Positions 1-15,800 of a stretch of DNA of 64,000 nt are shown here, in pieces. Position 1 is the stretch's first letter. Every line of letters begins with the position of its first letter. The notes under the pieces were generated by a model. It worked only from the letters and a program-made list of their open reading frames with translations, was not told the origin of the DNA and searched no databases. A program made the translations under genes and the position numbers. This stretch comes from Escherichia coli (GTDB taxonomy: Bacteria > Pseudomonadota > Gammaproteobacteria > Enterobacterales > Enterobacteriaceae): the NCBI RefSeq assembly GCF_050320075.1, contig NZ_CP190018.1, one strand, 5' to 3'.

Positions 1-306
1 GCTAAAGATGGTATCTCCTACACCTTCTCTATCGTTCCGAACGCACTGGGTAAAGACGACGAAGTTCGTAAGACCAACCTGGCTGGTCTGATGGATGGTT
101 ACTTCCACCACGAAGCATCCATCGAAGGTGGTCAGCACCTGAACGTTAACGTGATGAACCGTGAAATGCTGCTCGACGCGATGGAAAACCCGGAAAAATA
201 TCCGCAGCTGACCATCCGTGTATCTGGCTACGCAGTACGTTTCAACTCGCTGACTAAAGAACAGCAGCAGGACGTTATTACTCGTACCTTCACTCAATCT
301 ATGTAA
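1..306 (+). CDS. pflB: pyruvate formate-lyase (formate C-acetyltransferase), 3' partial
   Basis: Frame open from window start; C-terminus contains the glycyl-radical motif RVSGYAV and ends ...TRTFTQSM; followed by pflA. Confidence 0.95.
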
Positions 307-497
307 TTAGATTTGACTGAAATCGTACAGTAAAAAGCGTACAATAAAGGCTCCACGAAAGTGGGGCCTTTTTTAGCACGAGAGCCTTTTTTGTCAGCTA
401 TCTATACTTTAAGGTGACTGCCAAAACAGACTCGACGTAGCCTTCGAGCTGCGCACCAACACGGCCTCAGATGGGCCACATCTGGAGAAACACCGCA

Positions 498-1238
498 ATG
501 TCAGTTATTGGTCGCATTCACTCCTTTGAATCCTGTGGAACCGTAGACGGCCCGGGTATTCGCTTTATCACCTTTTTCCAGGGCTGCCTGATGCGCTGCC
601 TGTATTGTCATAACCGCGACACCTGGGACACGCATGGCGGTAAAGAAGTTACCGTTGAAGATTTAATGAAAGAGGTGGTGACCTATCGCCACTTTATGAA
701 CGCTTCCGGCGGCGGCGTTACCGCATCCGGCGGTGAAGCAATCCTGCAAGCTGAGTTTGTTCGTGACTGGTTCCGCGCCTGCAAAAAAGAAGGCATTCAT
801 ACCTGTCTGGACACCAACGGTTTTGTTCGTCGTTACGATCCGGTGATTGATGAACTGCTGGAAGTAACCGACCTGGTAATGCTCGATCTCAAACAGATGA
901 ACGACGAGATCCACCAAAATCTGGTTGGAGTTTCAAACCACCGCACGCTGGAGTTCGCCAAATATCTGGCGAACAAAAATGTGAAGGTGTGGATCCGCTA
1001 CGTTGTTGTGCCAGGCTGGTCTGACGATGACGATTCAGCGCATCGCCTCGGTGAATTTACCCGTGATATGGGCAACGTTGAGAAAATCGAGCTTCTCCCC
1101 TACCACGAACTGGGCAAACACAAATGGGTGGCGATGGGTGAAGAATACAAACTTGATGGTGTTAAACCACCGAAGAAAGAAACCATGGAACGCGTGAAAG
1201 GCATTCTTGAGCAGTACGGTCATAAGGTAATGTTCTAA
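498..1238 (+). CDS. pflA: pyruvate formate-lyase activating enzyme (radical SAM)
   Basis: ORF 471..1238 trimmed to ATG at 498 ([23 protein letters not shown]..., 246 aa); CxxxCxxC radical-SAM motif CLMRCLYC. Confidence 0.95.
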
Positions 1239-1250
1239 TTTCCCCGTAAA

Positions 1251-1281
1251 GCGGCAACTTTTTTGAGTTGCCGCTTTTTTA
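1251..1281 (+). terminator. rho-independent terminator downstream of pflA
   Basis: Hairpin gcggcaact/agttgccgc followed by T6 run, 13 nt after pflA stop. Confidence 0.8.
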
Positions 1282-1447
1282 TTCCGCGCTGCATAAATAA
1301 TTCAGAGCTCTATTTCTAACGCCCTTACAGCACAGCTTCCAAATGTATTACCCAAACCGCCAGTATATGTCCTGCGGCTTGCGCGCATTTCTCGATTATG
1401 TAAAAACGGGTCAGATCTGCCAGAGTCAGCGTCACCGACCACAATAA

Positions 1448-2878
1448 TTATTTGCTATTCGCTTTACGCGCCAGCAGCGGGAATATCAGCCCTAATCCCA
1501 CCAGCACAAACGGCGTTGCAACATTCAGCGCCAACTGGAATGTCCACTCTGCGGTGAAGGCTTCCATTTTCGGGAAAATACCAGTCAGGCAGGCAAAAGC
1601 GGTAAAGGCAAAACACCAAATTCCGACGGTCATTGCCAGCGGCTTATTACGAATAAAGACATATTCCGGCTTATATTTCTGCGCCAGGCGAACAACTGCA
1701 ATAAATGCAACAAATACCCATAAATAACGCAGCGGCATCACTACCGAATTAAGGTTCAACAGCCATTTATAGAGATTGTTCATATCACCAATGCCGAGAG
1801 TCGGCAGCATTATCAGGATCGCCACCAGCACCAGGGTCAGAAAATAGCCATTAACGGGCGTACCAGAAGCGTTGGTACGACATAAACTGGCTGGAATATA
1901 TTTGCTGTCAGCATCGCCTAATAACACTTTAAGCGGCGCATCAATCGAGAATACCAGCGCAGCTACTTGTCCCAGGGTATTCGCAATGGCATAAATCACC
2001 ATTAAAGTATTACCCATGTTGTAATACTCGCCCAGCTTCTGAAAGGCGTAATACTGACCGTTAGTCATTAAGTCATCCGGGATATTACGCGAGTCAAACA
2101 TCATCCCCATCGCCAGTGAGCCCAGAATGGCACAAACCGCAACCATCACCGCAAGGCATAACATCCCTTTTGGAAATTCTTTTCCTGGGTTGCGCGTTTG
2201 ATTAACGTAAGGAGAAATCTTCTCTGCTCCGCCAACCGCGAAAACCAGCATTGAAATAGTGGTAATGTAGGTAAAGTCGATATGAGGAATGAACGTTTCC
2301 CAGGTAATGTTTGTGGTCGCAATATGCACTTCAGTAATCGCAGGCGCGGTTACCGCCATCGCCACATACAGGAGCGACATAACAAACATCGCAATCCCTG
2401 CCACAGAACCGACGATTTTCAGCGATTTCATACCGCGTGAAGCAACCCACATAAAGAAGATAAACAGCACCAGCGTTAACCCCTGTAACGCTACGACTGA
2501 ATATTCTTTGATTAACGAACCGTCGCCTTTCATCGCCCAACCGAGCGCAATCAGTATTGCCTGGGGTTTTTGTGCCAGATAGGGAATATGCACTACCCAG
2601 TAGGTCCACGCGGCGAGGTAAGCCAGTCCGGGTCCCATCGTGTGTTTAATCCAGGTACTGACCCCGCCCTTCCCATCTTTGAAGGTCGAGCCTAACTGAC
2701 CAACAATTAGCGCATAAGGTGTGAAATAGAGCGCAAAGATAAACACCCATGAAAAAACAACCACCAGCCCCTGGTTGGCGTAGTTATTAACAACGTTGCC
2801 AAAACCCCAGACAGTGATAAAAGACATCAGCGCAATGTTGTACCATCGCAGCTGTTTTTCCTGAACATTCCCAGCCAT
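1448..2878 (-). CDS. ycaM: APC-family amino-acid transporter (putative)
   Basis: ORF 1448..3070 trimmed to ATG at 2878 (MAGNVQEKQLRWYN..., 476 aa); multi-pass hydrophobic protein. Confidence 0.85.
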   Translation of the reverse strand: MAGNVQEKQLRWYNIALMSFITVWGFGNVVNNYANQGLVVVFSWVFIFALYFTPYALIVGQLGSTFKDGKGGVSTWIKHTMGPGLAYLAAWTYWVVHIPYLAQKPQAILIALGWAMKGDGSLIKEYSVVALQGLTLVLFIFFMWVASRGMKSLKIVGSVAGIAMFVMSLLYVAMAVTAPAITEVHIATTNITWETFIPHIDFTYITTISMLVFAVGGAEKISPYVNQTRNPGKEFPKGMLCLAVMVAVCAILGSLAMGMMFDSRNIPDDLMTNGQYYAFQKLGEYYNMGNTLMVIYAIANTLGQVAALVFSIDAPLKVLLGDADSKYIPASLCRTNASGTPVNGYFLTLVLVAILIMLPTLGIGDMNNLYKWLLNLNSVVMPLRYLWVFVAFIAVVRLAQKYKPEYVFIRNKPLAMTVGIWCFAFTAFACLTGIFPKMEAFTAEWTFQLALNVATPFVLVGLGLIFPLLARKANSK

Positions 2879-3087
2879 AGACAAATCCTTCGCCAAAATT
2901 AAAGGGGCATCTGTAAAACGAGGGATTATGCGCGGCAAATAAGAAGTGCGGAAATAGCGAAATGCAAAATTATAACCTGCTGCACATTTTATTTTTAAAC
3001 GAATAAAATTTGGAATAAAGCAAGTCAGATAGAAGAAACAAAAAAGCAGAGTGTGAAACAGTAAGTTCACACTCTGCTTGAATTCAT

Positions 3088-4236
3088 TTACACGTGAGCA
3101 ACGGGTTTCGGCGTATGACCGGCGTTGCGAAGCAGCATCAGCAAATAGATAAACGATACGCTGGCGATCATGATAAACAATAAATTATCGGAGAAATTCT
3201 GCATTAGCATAGCGGTAAATGACGGGCCAAGCAGACTTCCCACGGTATAGCTCAACAGTAAGGCCTGGTTCATCGCCACCAGTTGATGATGTTCAACTTT
3301 CTCGCAAGCCCAGGCCATCGCCACCGGATATAGCGTAAAGCCAGCGGCACCGAGGATGAATAACGCTGGGGCCATCGCCGCCTGGCTAAGCATCGCGATA
3401 CTGCCGAGAATGACGACAAAGACCTGAACACGCAACACCAGCAGTCGACCAAACTTATCCGCCAGACGTCCAATCGGCCATTGTCCAAGGATACCCGCAC
3501 TGACCAGTACCGCCATCCAGAAACCAATGCTGGCATTGCTCACCCCTTTGTGATTGAGGTACAGCGGCATCAGGCCATATAGAGATCCCAGAACGATTCC
3601 TGAGATAATGCAGCCATTCACGCCAAGCCGCGCCTGACGGAGTTTTAGCATTGACGTAATTGACGTCGAATCATGGTTTTCAGCCTGCTGATTCAGCACA
3701 CGCGTAAACAACAGCGGTAAGATCCCTGCCAACGTCAAACCTGTAACCCACGGCAATACGGACATCAGCTCGGTTGAAACTTTGCTGACCAGTAACTGGC
3801 CTAAAAACGTTCCCACGTAATAAACCATCATATACGCAGCAAGCAAACGCCCACGGTTACGTGACGTCCCACTGCACATCAGCGCGCTCTCAACAACCAC
3901 CCAAATCATGGCACAGCCGACGCCGGCGACAAAACGCCAAGCCAACCAGCTCCAGAATCCAATCATCAGGCCAAGGCCGGCACAGCCAGCGGCAAAAATG
4001 AAGGAGGCCAGATAATAGCTGCGGTTAAAGCCAATGCGCTTAATGACATACCCTGTCAGCAATGTACCGACCAGGTTGCCGGTAAAATAGGATGAGCTGA
4101 CAACGCCTACCTGCCATGTGGACATGTGTTCCTGGGCGAGCCAAAGCGGCACGAGTGTATTTAACACTGCGATCGCCAGAGTCAACAAAAGCAGGCCAGA
4201 CAGCAAAAGCATGACAGGCCGGGTATACGTGGACAT
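3088..4236 (-). CDS. ycaD: MFS-family transporter
   Basis: 382-aa ORF, 12-TM-like hydrophobic profile, matches recalled YcaD. Confidence 0.85.
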
Positions 4237-4550
4237 GAATTAAAACCGTGAGGAAGTTCAAATTTCATGCGCATCATGCCACCGCCAAAAACATTGTCAA
4301 TGGGTGAAAATACGCGCATATCGCAGCGGAGGTATTATCGATTTATATTACTCATTCATAACGCTAATGCTGGAGAGACGATTAATCTCATCTGATTGTT
4401 TTTATTGATCTAACACAAATTTCATACGCTTCGTTCAGTCGAAAAATTTCATGGTCACAGCAAACTCATATTTCCCGTCTATGCTTTCAGAGCAATGCAT
4501 CGCGTCTGACCGATTTCAGACGTACCACTGACTCTCGAAAGGAGAAGAGG

Positions 4551-5177
4551 ATGACCAAACCGTATGTTCGTCTTGATAAAAATGATGCTGCCGTTTTGCT
4601 TGTTGATCACCAGGCTGGTTTACTTTCCCTTGTACGGGATATCGAACCCGATAAGTTTAAAAATAACGTGCTGGCGCTGGGTGACCTGGCTAAGTATTTC
4701 AACTTACCAACTATTCTTACCACCAGTTTTGAAACCGGTCCTAACGGCCCATTAGTTCCAGAACTGAAAGCACAATTCCCCGATGCACCTTACATTGCTC
4801 GCCCGGGCAATATTAACGCCTGGGATAACGAAGATTTTGTAAAAGCAGTCAAAGCGACAGGTAAAAAACAGTTAATTATTGCCGGTGTGGTAACCGAAGT
4901 TTGCGTGGCATTCCCGGCGCTTTCAGCCATTGAAGAAGGGTTTGACGTCTTTGTCGTGACTGACGCGTCAGGGACCTTTAATGAAATTACCCGGCATTCG
5001 GCGTGGGATCGCATGTCGCAAGCTGGTGCGCAATTGATGACATGGTTCGGCGTGGCTTGCGAGCTGCATCGCGACTGGCGTAATGATATTGAAGGACTGG
5101 CGACGTTGTTCTCTAACCATATTCCTGATTATCGTAATTTGATGACCAGTTATGACACGTTAACGAAGCAGAAATAA
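4551..5177 (+). CDS. ycaC: isochorismatase-family hydrolase
   Basis: 208-aa ORF MTKPYVRLDKNDAAVLLVDHQAG...; catalytic Cys in VVTEVCVAFP. Confidence 0.88.
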   Translation: MTKPYVRLDKNDAAVLLVDHQAGLLSLVRDIEPDKFKNNVLALGDLAKYFNLPTILTTSFETGPNGPLVPELKAQFPDAPYIARPGNINAWDNEDFVKAVKATGKKQLIIAGVVTEVCVAFPALSAIEEGFDVFVVTDASGTFNEITRHSAWDRMSQAGAQLMTWFGVACELHRDWRNDIEGLATLFSNHIPDYRNLMTSYDTLTKQK

Positions 5178-5211
5178 AAGAGAACCGGGGCCGAAACCCC
5201 GGTTGTTATGA

Positions 5212-6075
5212 TTAGCTTGCGACGGCCATCCCCACGGTCATATGCAAACCATAGAATACGCCACGACCGATTAATTCCCCTGCCAGAAGCAGAATGAATG
5301 ATACGGAAAGTAGCGGAACCGCAGGCTGATAACCTTTTAGCTGTGGTGCAATCCACAAGCACAGGGCAACAGCCAAAAGCACGATCCGCCAGGACATCAG
5401 CGCACCATAGTCCGGCACCAGCGCTGCGGCCTGCTGCACAGAGCTATGAATAGTCGCCAGCTCTGCGCCCTGCATCACTGACACCACGCCACTCACTACC
5501 AGGGCCAGTACAGAAATGGCTGGCAGCAGACGCATCGCCCAGCCATCGACGCCAGCCAGACTCAGCAACAGGTAACCCAGTAACGGGCCGCCCATAAACA
5601 TCGTCAGGAAGAAGCCCATCGGCGTCCAGATGCTGTACCAGGTCGGAACGGTATCAATGCTGTTATACACACGCACCATCATCCAGACAAAGATGACGCC
5701 AAGAACCATCGTCACTATCAGCCAGAGCGTACGCAATGCCGGTGACAGCTTTTTCAGCATTGCCAGCAACCAGCCGATGCCACCAACAGCAAAAAAGATC
5801 GAACCGCTGGCGATTTCGTTACTGAGTGCTGAAGCCCCTACCCGGTTGAGCGAGTTAAAGGCGCGCATCGGTGAACCAAGATGAAGCATAGAGGCGATAA
5901 AGCCAATGCCCATCAGCACCCATAAACCAAACATGCAGGCAATAACACGCTGCTGGGCTTCTGCTCGCAGGTCGCCTTTGAGCAGCGCCAAAGCCAGAAC
6001 GATAAAACCACCCGCTACACATTGCCCGAAGACCGTGAAGATCATCAGCGGCCATTCATGCCATCCACTTCCCAT
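5212..6075 (-). CDS. dmsC: DMSO reductase membrane anchor subunit
   Basis: ORF 5212..6138 trimmed to ATG at 6075 (MGSGWHEWPLMIFTVFGQ..., 287 aa); start abuts dmsB stop. Confidence 0.92.
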   Translation of the reverse strand: MGSGWHEWPLMIFTVFGQCVAGGFIVLALALLKGDLRAEAQQRVIACMFGLWVLMGIGFIASMLHLGSPMRAFNSLNRVGASALSNEIASGSIFFAVGGIGWLLAMLKKLSPALRTLWLIVTMVLGVIFVWMMVRVYNSIDTVPTWYSIWTPMGFFLTMFMGGPLLGYLLLSLAGVDGWAMRLLPAISVLALVVSGVVSVMQGAELATIHSSVQQAAALVPDYGALMSWRIVLLAVALCLWIAPQLKGYQPAVPLLSVSFILLLAGELIGRGVFYGLHMTVGMAVAS

Positions 6076-6076
6076 C

Positions 6077-6694
6077 TCACACCTCCTTCGGGTTTGCCAG
6101 ATAGCCAGTGGTATCCCCGGTCGGGCGGCTGTTGGCATTGGGTTTGATCACAATATTCGGTTTGGTAAAGTGAGCTCGCGGCAACGGCGCAACGGCCGCC
6201 AGATCGCCATGTTTTTTACGCAGCTCGTCGATAGGGCCGAAATCCAGCGCCCGCAGCGGGCAAGATTCAACACAGATCGGCTTTTTCCCCTCCGCAACAC
6301 GGTCATAACAACCATCGCATTTGGTCATATGGCCTTTCGTTTCGTTATATTGCGGTGCGCCATACGGGCAAGCCATATGGCAGTAGCGGCAGCCAATGCA
6401 CACATCTTCATCGACTACAACAAAACCATCTTCACGTTTATGCATCGCACCACTCGGGCAGACTTTAGTACAAGCCGGATCTTCGCAGTGGTTGCACGAA
6501 ATCGACAGATAGTAGGCAAACACGTTCTGGTGCCAGACACCGTTATCTTCCTGCCAGTCGCCACCAGCATATTCATAAATGCGGCGGAAGCTGACTTCCG
6601 GCGTCAGATCTTTATAGTCTTTACAGGCCAGCTCGCAGGTTTTGCAACCGGTGCAACGGCTGGAATCAATAAAAAATCCATACTGGGTTGTCAT
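6077..6694 (-). CDS. dmsB: DMSO reductase iron-sulfur subunit
   Basis: 205-aa ORF with four Cys clusters (CTGCKTCELAC, CNHCEDPACTKVCP, CIGCRYCHMACP, CDGC...CVESCP). Confidence 0.95.
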   Translation of the reverse strand: MTTQYGFFIDSSRCTGCKTCELACKDYKDLTPEVSFRRIYEYAGGDWQEDNGVWHQNVFAYYLSISCNHCEDPACTKVCPSGAMHKREDGFVVVDEDVCIGCRYCHMACPYGAPQYNETKGHMTKCDGCYDRVAEGKKPICVESCPLRALDFGPIDELRKKHGDLAAVAPLPRAHFTKPNIVIKPNANSRPTGDTTGYLANPKEV

Positions 6695-6704
6695 CGGTTA
6701 CTCC

Positions 6705-9149
6705 TTACACCTTTTCAACCTGAACAAGGTTTGTATGTGACGGATTCCCCTTAGCGAGAGGAGACGGACGTTGAGTGGTCAGTACGTTGATACAACCTCC
6801 CTTATCGACACGTTTTGCATCCGGGTCATACCAGGCACCTTCACCCAGTGCGACCACACCCGGCATCATTCGTGGCGTCACTTTCGCCTCAATATGAACC
6901 TCACCACGATCGTTAAAGATCCTGACTTTATCGCCGTTGTTGATACCGCGTTTTTGGGCATCAAGCGGGTTGATCCACATTTCCTGACGGCAAGCCGCTT
7001 TCAGCACATCAACGTTGCCGTAAGTTGAGTGAACGCGAGATTTGTAGTGGAAGCCAGTAAGCTGCAGCGGATATTGTTTGTTCAGCGGATCCTGATAACT
7101 TTCAAAGCCCGGCGTATAGATCGGCAGTGGATCGATCACATCGCCTTCTGGCAATTCCCAGGTCGCGGCAATGTCAGCCAGCGCCTGCGAATAAATCTCA
7201 ATTTTACCCGATGGCGTGGTCAGTGGATTTGCCTGAGGATCTTCACGGAAAGCTTTATAAGCAACGTGGTGCCCTTGTGGGTCGCGCTTTTTAAAGATCC
7301 CCTGCTTGCGGAACTCTTCAAACGTTGGCAGTTCAGGAATCGCTTCCCGCGACTGGGCATACAGATGCCGCATCCACTCTTCCTGTGTACGGCCTTCAGT
7401 AAACTGTTGCTCAACGCCAAGACGTTTTGCCAGTTCGCTGGTCATTTCATAGATGGTCTTACATTCAAAGCGCGGTTTAATCACCTGATCGTTGAAAATC
7501 ACGTAAGACATATTCCCGCAGGATGCATCCAGTGCAAAGTCCATCTGTTCGGAAGCGGTGCAGTCAGGCAGCAGGATGTCAGCATATTTCGCTGATGAGG
7601 TCATGTGGCAGTCGATAACCACAATCAGCTCGCACTTCTTATCATCCTGAAGGATTTCATGGGTACGGTTGATTTCAGAATGCTGGTTAATCAGGCAGTT
7701 ACCGGCATAGTTCCAGATCATTTTGATCGGCACATCCAGCTTATCTTTCCCGCGCACACCATCACGCAGCGCTGTCATTTCCGGGCCACGTTCAATGGCA
7801 TCGGTCCACATAAACATAGAAATGCTGGTCTGGATCGGGTTTTCGAGGGTCGGCATACGCACAAACGGTAAGCTGTATGAACCTTCACGCGCGCCGCTGT
7901 TCCCTCCATTAATACCAACGTTACCGGTCAGAATCGCCAGCATCGAGATAGCACGGGTTGCGATTTCACCGTTAGCGTGACGCTGCGGGCCCCATCCCTG
8001 GCTGATAAACGCCGGTTTGGTACTACCGATTTCACGAGCCAATTTGATGATTTTGTCTGCCGGAACACCGGTGATTTGCGAGGCCCATTCCGGCGTTTTA
8101 GCTACGCCATCTGGCCCTTCACCCAGAATATAAGCTTTATAGTGACCATTTTTCGGCGCACTGGCAGGCAGTGTTTTCTCGTCGTAGCCAACGCAATATT
8201 TATCGAGGAATGCCTGATCCACCAGGTTTTCGGTGATCATGACATACGCCAGACCGTTAACCAGTGCGGCATCTGTTCCCGGACGAATAGGGATCCACTC
8301 ATCTTCGCGCCCGGCTCCGGTGTCGGTATAGCGCGGATCGATGATGATCATGCGAGCATTAGATTTCTGACGCGCCTGTTCAAGATAGTAAGTCACCCCA
8401 CCGCCACTCATTCGCGTTTCGCCAGGGTTATTACCAAACAGCACTACCAGTTTACTGTTTTCGATATCCGACGGGCTGTTACCATCTGCCCAGCCGCCGT
8501 AGGTATAGTTCAAACCTTCCGCAATTTGCGCGGAAGAGTAGTCACCGTAATGGTTCAGATAACCGCCGCAGCAGTTCATCAGGCGAGCGACCAGGGTATT
8601 TCCCGGCGGCCAGGAGCGGGTCATGGTGCCACCCAGCGTACCGGTGCCATAGTTCAGATAGATGGATTCGTTGCCGTACTCTTTGATCAGGCGCTGCATA
8701 TTGGTCGCGATGATGTCGTAGGCTTCTTCCCAGCTAATGCGCTCGAATTTGCCTTCACCGCGCGCTCCGACTCGTTTCATCGGATATTTCAGGCGGTCCG
8801 GATTGTAGACACGGCGACGCATGGAACGACCACGCAGACAGGCGCGCACCTGGTGCAGGCCGTCATAGTTGTCATCGCCAGTATTATCCGTTTCAACATA
8901 TTTGATTTCACCGTCCACGACGTGCATACGTAGCGGGCAGCGACTACCACAGTTAACTGTACAGGCGCTCCAGATAACCTTTTCGTCTGATTTTGTTGGA
9001 ATGGCGCTATTGACAGCGTGCGCAATCCGACTAAAAGGTAATGTTAACGCGCTGCTGGCCATTGCCAGGCCGCCGATCGCTGTCGTTTTTACCAAACCAC
9101 GGCGACTCACCTCAGCAGCCAATACCGCATCAGGGATTTTCGTTTTCAT
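6705..9149 (-). CDS. dmsA: DMSO reductase catalytic (molybdopterin) subunit
   Basis: 814-aa ORF with N-terminal twin-arginine signal (SRRGLVK); operon dmsABC. Confidence 0.95.
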   Translation of the reverse strand: MKTKIPDAVLAAEVSRRGLVKTTAIGGLAMASSALTLPFSRIAHAVNSAIPTKSDEKVIWSACTVNCGSRCPLRMHVVDGEIKYVETDNTGDDNYDGLHQVRACLRGRSMRRRVYNPDRLKYPMKRVGARGEGKFERISWEEAYDIIATNMQRLIKEYGNESIYLNYGTGTLGGTMTRSWPPGNTLVARLMNCCGGYLNHYGDYSSAQIAEGLNYTYGGWADGNSPSDIENSKLVVLFGNNPGETRMSGGGVTYYLEQARQKSNARMIIIDPRYTDTGAGREDEWIPIRPGTDAALVNGLAYVMITENLVDQAFLDKYCVGYDEKTLPASAPKNGHYKAYILGEGPDGVAKTPEWASQITGVPADKIIKLAREIGSTKPAFISQGWGPQRHANGEIATRAISMLAILTGNVGINGGNSGAREGSYSLPFVRMPTLENPIQTSISMFMWTDAIERGPEMTALRDGVRGKDKLDVPIKMIWNYAGNCLINQHSEINRTHEILQDDKKCELIVVIDCHMTSSAKYADILLPDCTASEQMDFALDASCGNMSYVIFNDQVIKPRFECKTIYEMTSELAKRLGVEQQFTEGRTQEEWMRHLYAQSREAIPELPTFEEFRKQGIFKKRDPQGHHVAYKAFREDPQANPLTTPSGKIEIYSQALADIAATWELPEGDVIDPLPIYTPGFESYQDPLNKQYPLQLTGFHYKSRVHSTYGNVDVLKAACRQEMWINPLDAQKRGINNGDKVRIFNDRGEVHIEAKVTPRMMPGVVALGEGAWYDPDAKRVDKGGCINVLTTQRPSPLAKGNPSHTNLVQVEKV

Positions 9150-9387
9150 AATGGCTCACTCAAGCTTGCTCACGATTGATTCCAGTAACAAACCGTATTG
9201 TGTAATTATTTCTATAGCAGGTCGCTATATAGGCTTGTATACATCGAATAATTTGAAAATCAAAGAGATAGGTAGATTTTCACTCGAAAGTAGTATTACG
9301 TGTAAGTGAGGAGTAATTATTGTTCGGTATCAAAGGGAGACAAAAAAAGCGCCCGCAGGCGCTTTTTAGATTCAGAAAAATTGGGTA

Positions 9388-10701
<1,314 letters not shown>

Positions 10702-10770
10702 TTAAATGGGAGATGTGGCCACAGCCTGCGACCACAGGGATACAGTAACAACATTACCGCAACGATAACA

Positions 10771-12114
10771 TTAACGGTAGCGTTTTATGGGGCTATTTTG
10801 ATCCTGTTCAGCCAGCCAGGCGAGCTTTTCGCCAATCTTGCCTTCAAGGCCCCTGTTTGTCGGGAAATAATAGCGTGTTTGTGCTATTTCCGGCGGGAAG
10901 TAAACCTCACCGGCAGCATAAGCGTTTGCTTCATCATGAGCGTAACGATATTCCTGCCCGTAGCCCATTTCCTTCATTAATTTCGTCGGCGCATTACGCA
11001 AATGAACCGGCACGTCATAATCCGGACGTTCGCGAGCATCCGCCAGCGCGGCTTTAAACGCAGTGTAGACAGCGTTGCTTTTTGGCGCGCAGGCCAGGTA
11101 AACAATCGCCTGAGCAATGGCGCGTTCTCCTTCCGCCGGGCCAACTCGGGTAAAGCAATCCCAGGCCGCAATTGCCACCTGCATCGCTCGTGGATCAGCA
11201 TTACCCACATCTTCCGACGCTATCGCCAGACAGCGACGCGCGACATATAACGGATCGCCACCGGCAGTAATAATTCGCGCATACCAGTACAGCGCCGCAT
11301 CGGGTGCGCTACCACGTACCGACTTATGCAGTGCGGAAATGAGATCGTAAAAGCGATCGCCTTTGTTATCAAAGCGGGCGCTACGTTCACCGGCGATTTC
11401 AGTCAGTAATTCAGGCTTCAGGACCCGCTTACCGCTATCATCGACTTCGGCCATATCCGCCATCATTTCCAGCGTATTTAACGCCCGGCGCGCGTCGCCA
11501 TTCACCAGTTCAGCAATGGCGCGTCGCGTTTCATCTGGCAGAACTATATCCTGACCACCATAGCCACGGGTTTTGTCTTCCATCGCCTGAGTAAGCACCT
11601 GCTCAATATCCTCTGTACTCAGGGATTTCAGCAGATAGACACGGGCACGGGAAAGCAGTGCCGAGTTAAGTTCAAACGACGGGTTTTCAGTGGTTGCGCC
11701 AATAAAAGTGATGGTGCCGTCTTCAATATGTGGCAGAAATGCATCCTGCTGGCTTTTGTTGAATCGGTGAACTTCGTCAACAAAAAGAATAGTGCGGCGA
11801 CCAGCATTGCGGTTTTGCCGAGCGCGCTCGATCGCCTCGCGAATCTCTTTCACGCCAGAAGTAACGGCAGAAATACGTTCCACATCAGCGTTCGCATAGC
11901 GGGCAATCACTTCAGCGAGGGTTGTTTTGCCGGTACCCGGTGGCCCCCAGAGGATCATAGAATGCAAATGCCCGGCTTCGATAGCACGCGGCAACGGCTT
12001 CCCCGCAGCCAACAAATGTTGCTGGCCGATATACTGTGCTAAATTTTCTGGCCGCATACGCGCGGCCAGAGGTTGAAAAGTATTATCCGAAAAATCGAGC
12101 GACAGATTGCTCAC
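10771..12114 (-). CDS. rarA: recombination-associated AAA+ ATPase RarA/MgsA
   Basis: 447-aa ORF with Walker [10 protein letters not shown]. Confidence 0.93.
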
Positions 12115-12124
12115 TCAGGTGCCT

Positions 12125-12736
12125 CTACTTACGTTGATCATCTACCGTTACGCCTTGCGGCGGGGTGAAGGTAAATTTCGCTGCATCCACAGTCCCATTT
12201 TGCTGGGATTTCAGCTGATAACTGCTGCGCTGATCGTCCTGCTCCACCGCGCTAAACTGATGGATTGTGCCATCACGTCCCACGTTAATGGTGAACTGCT
12301 TCAGATTGCCATTGCTGGCTTTCGGCGTCAGGACAAAGTCATCGCCATTCTGTTTGATATTGTACTGCTGCCAGTCGCTGGACTGGTTGCGGGCAATCAG
12401 CATAAACGGCGTATTACCGGTGGCATCTTTCAGCCAGGTTGCCGTAGCTTGCTCAACGAACGGGTTATAGAACCACAGTGTTTTACCGTCCGAAACCAGA
12501 ATGCTTTCATCAGGTTGAGTCATATGCCAGTTGAATAAGTTTGGACGTTTCACCCACAGATCGCCCTGGCCTTCCTGCACCGCCGCGCCGCTACCGTCAG
12601 TCACTTTTTGTGTGAAGCTGGCGTGGAAGCTGCTGACTTTATCCAGGCGGCTTTTAAGATCGCTTGCGGCATCAGCCCAAACGCTGCTTGCTACTAAGCT
12701 TGAGAGTAATGCACAGGTGATGGCAATTTTTTTCAT
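12125..12736 (-). CDS. lolA: outer-membrane lipoprotein carrier protein
   Basis: ORF 12125..12739 trimmed to second ATG ([21 protein letters not shown]..., 203 aa) with signal peptide. Confidence 0.93.
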
Positions 12737-12848
12737 CATTATTCCTCAAATTACGTCACTCCCGATCGGGAGTTCCCTCTACTCTCTATTCCAGGCTAAT
12801 AATCAGCTTGAGGAAAGAAGAAAATACTGAATTTTCAGTTGTTAGAGT

Positions 12849-12884
12849 GCCGGATGCGACGCTACCGAGCCTTATCCGGCCTAC
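12849..12884. repeat. REP (repetitive extragenic palindromic) element
   Basis: gccggatgcgacgct...gccttatccggcctac between ftsK stop and lolA start; matches canonical E. coli REP. Confidence 0.75.
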
Positions 12885-12894
12885 GATGCATTAA

Positions 12895-15800
12895 TTAGTC
12901 AAACGGCGGTGGGGCCAGCACTTCACGATTACCGTTGTGCCCCTGTTCGCTGACAATCCCCTGCGCTTCCATCTGTTCGATAATACGCGCTGCACGGTTA
13001 TAACCAATGCGGAACTGACGCTGTACGCCAGAAATTGATGCTTTGCGTTTTTCAGTGACAAACTGCACCGCCTGATCGAACAACGGATCCAGCTCTTCAG
13101 CGCCATCGAAACCGCCCGCGCCACCTTCGCTTTCACTGTCGGAGGTGATGCCATCAACATACTGTGGGCGACCACGCGCTTTCCAGTCCTGCACCACGGC
13201 ATGAACTTCCTGATCGCGAACAAAAGCACCATGAACACGTACCGGCAACGTGGAGTTCGGCCCAGAGTAAAGCATATCCCCCATACCCAGCAGTGATTCC
13301 GCGCCAGCCTGATCAAGAATGGTACGTGAGTCAATCTTACTGGATACGGTAAAGGCGATACGGGTCGGAATATTCGCTTTAATCAGACCAGTAATAACAT
13401 CAACCGATGGACGCTGCGTTGCCAGTACGAGGTGGATACCCGCGGCACGGGCTTTTTGCGCCAGACGTGCTATAAGCTCTTCCACTTTTTTACCTACCGT
13501 CATCATCAGGTCGGCAAATTCGTCCACCAACACCACAATGTACGGTTCTTTTTTCAGCACCGGATGCTGGGCATCCATACTGTCACCCGGCTTCCAGTAC
13601 GGGTCTGGAATCGGACGCATCATGCGATCGGCTTCAGCAATTTTTTCGTTATAACCCGCCAGATTACGCACACCTAGGGCGGACATCAGCTTATAACGAC
13701 GTTCCATTTCATTTACGCACCAGCGCAAAGCGTTGGCAGCATCTTTCATGTCGGTAACGACTTCCGTTAACAGATGCGGAATGCCTTCATAAACCGAAAG
13801 CTCCAGCATTTTCGGGTCGATCATGATGAAACGCACATCTTCTGGCTGTGCTTTATAAAGCATGCTCAGGATCATCGCGTTCACCCCGACAGACTTACCG
13901 GAACCGGTAGTCCCCGCAACCAACAAGTGCGGCATTTTCGCCAGATCGGCAACCACCGGCTCACCGGCGATATCTTTACCCAGCACCACGGTTAATGGCG
14001 ACGGATTATCGCGGAATTTGGCGTTATCCAATACTTCGCGCAGATAAACGGTTTGTCGTTTTTTATTCGGTAACTCCAGACCTACATAGGGTTTGCCAGG
14101 AATAACTTCAACGACACGCACCGCCACCGTCGAAAGTGAACGGGCAAGGTCCCGTGACAAGTTAGAAATGCGCGCCGCTTTTACGCCCGGTGCCAGGTTA
14201 AGTTCAAAGCGAGTGATAACCGGCCCCGGAGAGTAATTGACGACATCGGCTTTAATACGGAAATCAGCCAGACGCGCTTCCACCAGACGCGCCATTTGTT
14301 CAAGCGCAAAGGTATCTACCGGCTCCACTTCGCTCGGCGGCGGTGTCAGCAAATCCAGAGAAGGCAGCGGCGTCGTCGGTTTATGCAACGGACGGCTGTC
14401 ACCATTGCGCATCAACAGCGGATGAAGCAGGGTATCATGCGGCTGCGGCGCAACTGGCTGTTGCGGCTGCTGATATTGCGGCTGCTGTGCAACCGGCTGT
14501 TGCGGCTGCTGATATTGCTGCTGCGGCGCAACCGGTTGTTGTGGCTGCTGATATTGCTGCTGCGGTGCAACCGGCTGTTGCGGCTGCTGATACTGCGGCT
14601 GCGGCGCAACTGGTTGCTGCGGCTGCTGATACTGTTGCTGCGGTGCAATCGGTTGTTGCGGCTGCTGTACAGGTTCAACAATTGGCGTAAACAACGGTTC
14701 GTGTGGACCATCATCCAGCAACGCTTTCATTGGCGAAAATTCAAAATCATCCAGCGTGAACGGATTCGCCCCAGCCGGTTGTTCGCCGGAATAACGTTGT
14801 TGTTGAGTTTGCGCAAACTGACGAGCCAGTTCAGCCTCTGCCGCAGCATCTGCATCTTCTGCGTTCACGGGCACATCATGTTGATACTGTTCGCCATAGC
14901 GTTGCTGCTGTGTCTGGGCGAACTGACGTGCCAGTTCATCCTGCTGCATCGCATCGATTTCATCATCGTTATACTGATCGCCGGAATCGTACTGATTGCG
15001 CTGAGCTTCACGGGCTTTTTCTTCTGCCGCACGCTGTGAGGGCAGCTTAATACCGTAAGACGCCAGTTCACGACGAGTTGGCACGCGGATACGTTTCGGT
15101 CGTGGCAACTGCGGGCCAATCCCCTCTTTGACCTGTGGACGCGGTCCAGCGCTATTTGCCAGACTGAAGACTGGCGCGGCAACGGTTGCGGCAGCCCCCG
15201 TCGCCAGTGTCGCTTTTTTCACGCCAGATGCCAGAGGGGAAACAGCGGCAGCGGCTTCCACTGGAGGTACTGCTGCAACAGAAGGTGTTTTCAGCGAAGA
15301 TTTGATCGGTTCTGGTTCTTTAACCGGTTCAGGAATCGGTTGATACCAGGCCGCAAGTTGTTCACGTTCACGGGCACGCTTCTCTTCCACTTCTTCAAAA
15401 TAGTAAAGCGGCGGACGCGCGGGTTTTGTCTCTTCTACAACGGGTTCAGGCTCCACAACAGGCTGCTGTTCAACAGGTTGCGGCTGTTGGTACAACGGCT
15501 CCTGAGCGACTGGCTGCTGATAAGTTTGCTCAGTCTGGTATGTAGACTGTGGAGCAAAAGTGGATTGCTGCTCTTCGGCTTGCCAGGCGTTACCTGCCAC
15601 CGATTGTTCTGGCGCAGGGGCGTAATACGACTGTTGCGCAGACTGTTCCGGCGCAGTTGCGTAATACGGCTGCTGAACAGGTTGTTCCGCCGCAGGAGCG
15701 TAGTAAGGTTGTTGCACAGGTTGTTCCGCTGCTGGCGCATAATACGGCTGCTGTGGCTGTACAGGTTGTTGCAGCGGCTCATTATATTGCACTGCAGGCT

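Follow-up and report, generated by a model that had tools for sequence, protein, structure and literature searches.

The 209 bp that separate pflA from ycaM in the stretch of Escherichia coli DNA analyzed here (64,000 nucleotides, hereafter the window) are best read as the scar of a single deletion of ~1.48 kb that removed ycaK and ycaN and left a stub of each gene, a reading to which we assign a probability of roughly 0.92. The evidence for it comes from the contents of the gap, from the comparison with K-12, with other E. coli genomes and with other Escherichia, and from the state of the same site in other genera.

Layout of the locus

The window starts within pflB, which is followed by pflA, the 209-bp gap, ycaM, ycaD, ycaC, and dmsCBA. 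The gap (1239–1447) lies between the pflA stop codon (TAA, 1236–1238) and the ycaM stop codon (1448–1450), and its length agrees with the ~210 bp given in a preliminary description of this DNA. That description had placed ycaK and ycaN between pflA and ycaM in K-12, which the gene order of K-12 MG1655 (dmsABC, ycaC, ycaD, ycaM, ycaN, ycaK, pflA, pflB) bears out, and had called both genes absent here; alignment of the junction against K-12 confirmed that functional copies are missing and that ~1.5 kb is gone. It had also seen neither an ORF nor an obvious remnant in the gap, and on this point it was mistaken, because stubs of ycaN (1335–1447) and ycaK (1325–1334) are both present, as is a 46-aa ORF. 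The flanking genes are close to those of K-12, with 97–98% nucleotide identity for pflA and 97.3% for ycaM. The features are as follows:

498–1238, + strand: pflA (pyruvate formate-lyase activating enzyme), intact, 246 aa (ORF list and RefSeq annotation of an identical genome)
1248–1280, + strand: pflA intrinsic terminator, predicted, with a 13-bp stem and a 4-nt loop (1248–1277) and a T-run to 1280 (terminator scan)
1281–1294: post-terminator sequence ATTCCGCGCTGCAT, collinear with K-12; the BLAST alignment reaches 1294
1295–1324: diverged homolog of the pflA-ycaK intergenic spacer (MAFFT against K-12, E. albertii, and cryptic-clade alleles)
1325–1334, − strand: ycaK 3' stub, comprising the stop codon (TTA on the + strand, 1325–1327) and 7 nt of coding sequence (MAFFT alignment)
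1334/1335: proposed deletion junction (K-12 comparison and multiple alignment)
1335–1447, + strand: ycaN 3' stub, a pseudogene (tblastn, alignment, and PGAP annotation)
1448–2878, − strand: ycaM (APC-family permease), intact, 476 aa (ORF list; Pfam AA_permease_2)
3088–4236, − strand: ycaD (MFS transporter), intact (ORF list and annotation)

The gap holds stubs of both genes

Immediately downstream of pflA, the predicted Rho-independent terminator folds at −20.3 kcal/mol (z = −5.1) and is kept in K-12, ST131, and other Escherichia; its hairpin is an inverted repeat and forms on the minus strand as well. In BLAST against K-12, the window is collinear to position 1294 (97% identity) and the alignment resumes at 1335 (96%), and K-12 carries 1,511 bp where the window has 40 unalignable bp (1295–1334). 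These 40 bp had no BLAST match in K-12, ST131, or an island-bearing strain and were found at no other site in E. coli genomes. The MAFFT alignment of the gap, in which K-12 was entered as separate left and right pieces, nevertheless placed them: the first 30 nt (1295–1324) align as diverged spacer and 1325–1334 align to K-12 CTTATAGTGCA, i.e., the ycaK stop codon and last codons.

The lack of a BLAST match for the 40 bp, together with the fact that the site is occupied by a 13.5-kb island in certain strains and by different cargo in other genera, could be taken to mean that they are foreign filler from a mobile element or island that replaced ycaK-ycaN and was later excised. We dropped this idea, which we regard as highly improbable, because in the multiple alignment the 40 bp are collinear with the spacer and ycaK stop of the E. 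albertii and cryptic-clade alleles and, if indels are allowed, with those of K-12, and no foreign sequence appears at the junction. Moreover, they match neither the island-bearing strain nor any other place in E. coli genomes, and no IS remnant, terminal inverted or direct repeats, or target-site duplication was found within 1100–1700. Because the junction shows neither transposon ends nor useful microhomology, the ycaK-ycaN deletion looks like the product of illegitimate recombination.

On the other side of the junction, codons 267–302 of ycaN occupy 1337–1444 and are followed by the stop codon at 1445–1447, which directly abuts the ycaM stop codon as in K-12. The encoded peptide is identical to residues 267–302 of K-12 YcaN at 35 of 36 positions (tblastn E = 2e-19) and includes the LysR-typical C-terminal RAFLDYV motif, while at the nucleotide level the stub is 96–98% identical to the 3' end of K-12 ycaN (101 of 103 nt in a column count). 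By homology, by syntenic position, and by its convergent orientation with ycaM, this segment is a remnant of ycaN.

Three further observations concern the gap and its surroundings. Antisense to the ycaN stub lies a GTG-started ORF of 46 aa (1302–1442, − strand), which is probably spurious. A stem within the ycaN stub (1401–1440, − strand; 6 bp, GGUCGG...CUGACC, followed by CGUUUUU) is a candidate that could serve as the ycaM terminator; it is present with some compensatory changes in other Escherichia alleles, but its fold is no better than that of shuffled sequence (z = −1.1) and the covariation is weak. An Rfam scan of positions 1–3200 found no family in the gap; a sub-threshold match to the Pseudomonas sRNA P31 at 3003–3077 (+ strand; E = 0.36, with 22.7 bits where the gathering score is 40) falls across the ycaD terminator region and is probably due to chance.

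Sequences missing relative to K-12

The missing interval corresponds approximately to NC_000913 948,773–950,248 (1,476 bp) and comprises ycaK codons ~1–193, the 99-bp divergent promoter region, and ycaN codons 1–265. On the proposed mechanism, one deletion would thus have taken nearly all of ycaK, which encodes a flavodoxin-fold NAD(P)H oxidoreductase, the divergent promoter, and the first 265 codons of ycaN, and would have spared the pflA terminator, the old pflA-ycaK spacer, the ycaK stop codon with 7 nt, and the last 36 codons of ycaN.

Neither stub retains a working domain. K-12 YcaN consists of an HTH_1 DNA-binding domain (PF00126, residues 7–63) and a LysR_substrate domain (PF03466, residues 91–290), and K-12 YcaK has a Flavodoxin_2 domain (PF02525). 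In the ycaN stub no Pfam domain was detected: the HTH_1 domain is absent, only the last ~24 residues of the substrate-binding domain are left, and there is neither a start codon nor a promoter, so that the stub cannot function as a regulator. A functional ycaK is likewise missing, with only its stop codon and 7 nt left and no Flavodoxin_2 domain; YcaK had no tblastn match at E < 2 anywhere in the 64-kb window, which also contains no other homolog of ycaN or ycaK.

Because direct inspection covered 64 kb of the source genome, we considered that the two genes might have moved elsewhere in that genome or that the gap might be an assembly artefact. In the genomes that carry the junction, the only sequence matching K-12 ycaN-ycaK is the 113-bp stub, and this single match per deletion genome, together with the lack of a second homolog in the window, argues that the genes have not moved. 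The junction sequence recurs unchanged in ~1,000 complete assemblies made independently, and at least 15 complete genomes (sources: humans, dogs, gulls, and water) match the window over 25 kb at 100% identity, which speaks against an artefact. We therefore give relocation or artefact practically no weight.

Frequency of the deletion in E. coli

Among 5,426 complete RefSeq E. coli genomes, the site was found in the following states:

ycaN-ycaK intact: 3,316 genomes
contiguous pflA-stub-ycaM as in the window: 1,021 genomes
pflA terminator joined to the ycaD terminator, with ycaM lost as well (ST131, 83972, and others): 1,047 genomes
other cargo at the site: a few genomes

The preliminary description had named pflA-ycaM adjacency as the common state in reference genomes as the finding that would overturn it. 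Such adjacency is indeed frequent (1,021 of 5,426 genomes, 19%, including O157:H7) but falls well behind the intact arrangement (61%), and the pflA-ycaM junction thus characterizes a sizeable minority of genomes, being neither typical nor rare. An exact-word search for the junction matched 960 of the 1,021 window-type genomes, at one chromosomal place in each and never attached to an intact ycaK; one of 961 matches lay on a plasmid record and represents either a captured chromosomal fragment or mis-binning. O157:H7, O145, and O157:H16 are among the strains with the window-type junction. Both states are frequent and the junction is one and conserved; the allele has become fixed across much of the species and is inherited or exchanged as one haplotype. 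Altogether, ycaK and ycaN are missing from ~39% of complete E. coli genomes as a result of two main deletions that are independent of each other. RefSeq/PGAP already names the stub [quoted passage not shown] (LSI72_RS19555, CA897_RS15255), while many records call it only "hypothetical protein". We conclude that the presence or absence of ycaK-ycaN is an ordinary polymorphism of a variable site, already known and annotated.

Several other arrangements were seen at this site in E. coli. MSB1_4I carries a 13.5-kb island in place of ycaK-ycaN between ycaM and pflA (957–14439 of the locus), and in a genome labeled E. coli E69 an island lies at 7429–13428 of the locus; the genes of this c-di-GMP/cellulose-synthase island encode an EAL-CHASE9 protein and a GGDEF-GAPES2 protein and include bcsA, an IS1-split bcsB, and bcsC. 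In MSB1_4I ycaM is frameshifted, and identity to the window drops to 87% over the final 138 bp of pflA. IS elements interrupt ycaN-ycaK in a few genomes; in JMF1 (NZ_CM139231.1, 1008928–1012369) the ycaN-ycaK region is broken by IS903B and IS1, which is another route of inactivation for ycaN-ycaK.

Intact genes preceded several deletions

More than 20 species, in Citrobacter, Kluyvera, Yokenella, Pluralibacter, and Salmonella arizonae/diarizonae, have pflA 50–160 bp from ycaM with no ycaN, ycaK, or stub. Because the two genes are adjacent there without a trace of the pair, adjacency alone may reflect a site that was never occupied, and only the stubs argue otherwise in the window. The distribution could, accordingly, suggest that the window preserves an ancestral, never-occupied state and that ycaK-ycaN was inserted later in K-12 and its relatives. 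The window, however, keeps 36 ycaN codons with their stop (35 of 36 aa identical) and the ycaK stop region, and any inserted segment would need to have completed both reading frames as it landed; the stub sequences are absent from the short gaps of the genera that lack the genes. The persistence of stubs of both genes thus indicates a deletion. Furthermore, in a species scan with YcaM as the query and one genome per species, E. albertii and three cryptic-clade representatives lacked the genes and kept stubs of both, with three breakpoint pairs overall. Three distinct Escherichia deletion alleles with stubs of different lengths sit poorly with a never-occupied site; different breakpoints with stubs of both genes kept imply that an intact cluster preceded several independent deletions.

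The cluster is also found at this locus outside Escherichia. Pseudocitrobacter corydidari (locus 3217–6930) has the order pflA-LysR-CBAH-ycaK-ycaN-ycaD, with an extra LysR and CBAH pair and no ycaM, and a Logan contig from SRR26188688 has pflA-ycaK-ycaN-ycaM, collinear with K-12 at 77% nucleotide identity. These two cases tell against a never-occupied window, which we consider very unlikely, and weaken the notion that ycaK-ycaN was acquired only in Escherichia. The pair could either be old, with many losses, or have spread horizontally into a hotspot.

At the same site, Citrobacter werkmanii and Kluyvera carry a cassette of PTS EIIA2, a split transketolase, EIIC-GAT, and RpiR in the gap between pflA and ycaM (e.g., locus 7420–13206), and in C. 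sedlakii and C. portucalensis the gap holds a gene whose 263-aa product has no Pfam match and begins with a segment resembling a signal peptide (loci 7468–8259 and 7477–8271). The pflA-ycaM site looks like a family-wide insertion hotspot. Two other hits were set aside. An apparent diverged allele turned out to be a K-12-like metagenome scaffold with internal gaps, and a contig of 396 bp from a Corallococcus aberystwythensis assembly, which has 0.67x coverage and shares 99% identity with E. coli ycaM, is almost certainly contamination.

A junction apparently shared with E. albertii

The simple scenario of one recent deletion has a point against it, which lies in the sequence next to the junction. 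Over the 41 columns of spacer and ycaK stub, the window is identical to K-12 in only 18, while the flanks are 97–98% identical; because the spacer is so much more diverged than its flanks, a simple recent deletion of a K-12-like allele is no explanation. Over the same columns the window matches E. albertii in 31. In the one E. albertii genome compared, the type strain NBRC 107761, both breakpoints and the spacer haplotype are those of the window, and the alignment runs through the junction without a gap (locus 7432–7643 against window 1239–1447). Away from the junction the relationship reverses, with the ycaN stub of the window matching K-12 in 101 of 103 columns and E. albertii in 82 of 105, and ycaM following the species tree (the window is 85% identical to E. 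albertii and 97% identical to K-12). The E. albertii ycaN stub is decayed, with a 1-nt frameshift and 78% identity, whereas that of E. coli retains 98% identity to the intact ycaN of K-12. In the ycaN stub, the three differences nearest the junction fall within the first 19 nt. In E. coli, a core of ~60 bp around the junction is thus much closer to E. albertii than to the intact K-12 allele, and beyond this core the sequence is E. coli-like (97–98%).

Judged from these alignments, the pattern is that expected of an old indel haplotype whose flanks have been homogenized by recombination, which suggests that the deletion predates, or has crossed, the boundary between E. coli and E. albertii. We tentatively raise the possibility, which we hold to be less than even, that the deletion allele arose long before E. 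coli did, either as a polymorphism maintained across species or as an ancient cross-species import whittled down by recombination. If this were true then, in combination with four or more further independent losses or replacements at the site, it would point to recurrent or balancing selection on the regulator-oxidoreductase pair. The two types of cryptic-clade deletion allele were absent from the complete E. coli genomes, in which their best matches were the window allele at ~80% identity.

Possible consequences of the deletion

Deletion of ycaN in K-12 lowers expression of ycaC, raises that of ycaD and focA, and abolishes growth on formate in a phenotype array (PMC9068703), and in K-12 the ycaM and ycaN transcripts overlap convergently (PMC12288877). 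From these data, carriers of the deletion should lack YcaN-dependent control of the neighboring genes ycaC, ycaD, and focA as well as the ycaM/ycaN transcript overlap, and transcription of ycaM would now head toward the two-way hairpin of the pflA terminator. Carriers presumably also lack YcaK activity.

At the pflA-ycaM site, the gene order of K-12 cannot be taken as the norm for the species. Because ~39% of the genomes are without ycaK and ycaN, results on the K-12 YcaN regulon (ycaC, ycaD, focA, and growth on formate) are not transferable to O157:H7, ST131, and many other lineages. With its single origin, the junction makes a clean marker that could be used for lineage typing. The repeated independent loss of the same two genes, together with a junction apparently shared with E. 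albertii, makes a mild evolutionary point.

Comparison with known alleles and annotations

The stub in the window is the true C-terminus of YcaN, the LysR-type regulator of K-12, but has neither of the HTH and substrate-binding domains of the K-12 protein. The PGAP pseudogene entry has coordinates equivalent to 1337–1447 of the window and covers the ycaN stub; it is silent on the ycaK stub and on which genes were lost.

The pflA-ycaD deletion allele of ST131 affects the same locus, likewise begins just past the pflA terminator, and takes out both ycaK and ycaN, and it is similar in frequency to the window allele (1,047 and 1,021 genomes). It differs in being larger, with ycaM gone too and no ycaN stub, and in its independent junction, which joins the pflA terminator to the ycaD terminator. 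This junction lies at 8238–8333 of the ST131 locus, and the part of the window absent there is 1281–3047.

A close counterpart is O157:H7, in which ycaN-ycaK is absent at exactly the junction of the window and the 40-bp spacer is identical. The genome comparison of K-12 with EDL933 reportedly described "K-islands", K-12-specific segments that are absent from O157:H7. The window itself is not O157:H7, to which it is 96.4% identical over 701 bp, but belongs with another widespread clone, to which it is 100% identical over 25 kb; the junction allele that it carries is common to O157:H7 and E. albertii.
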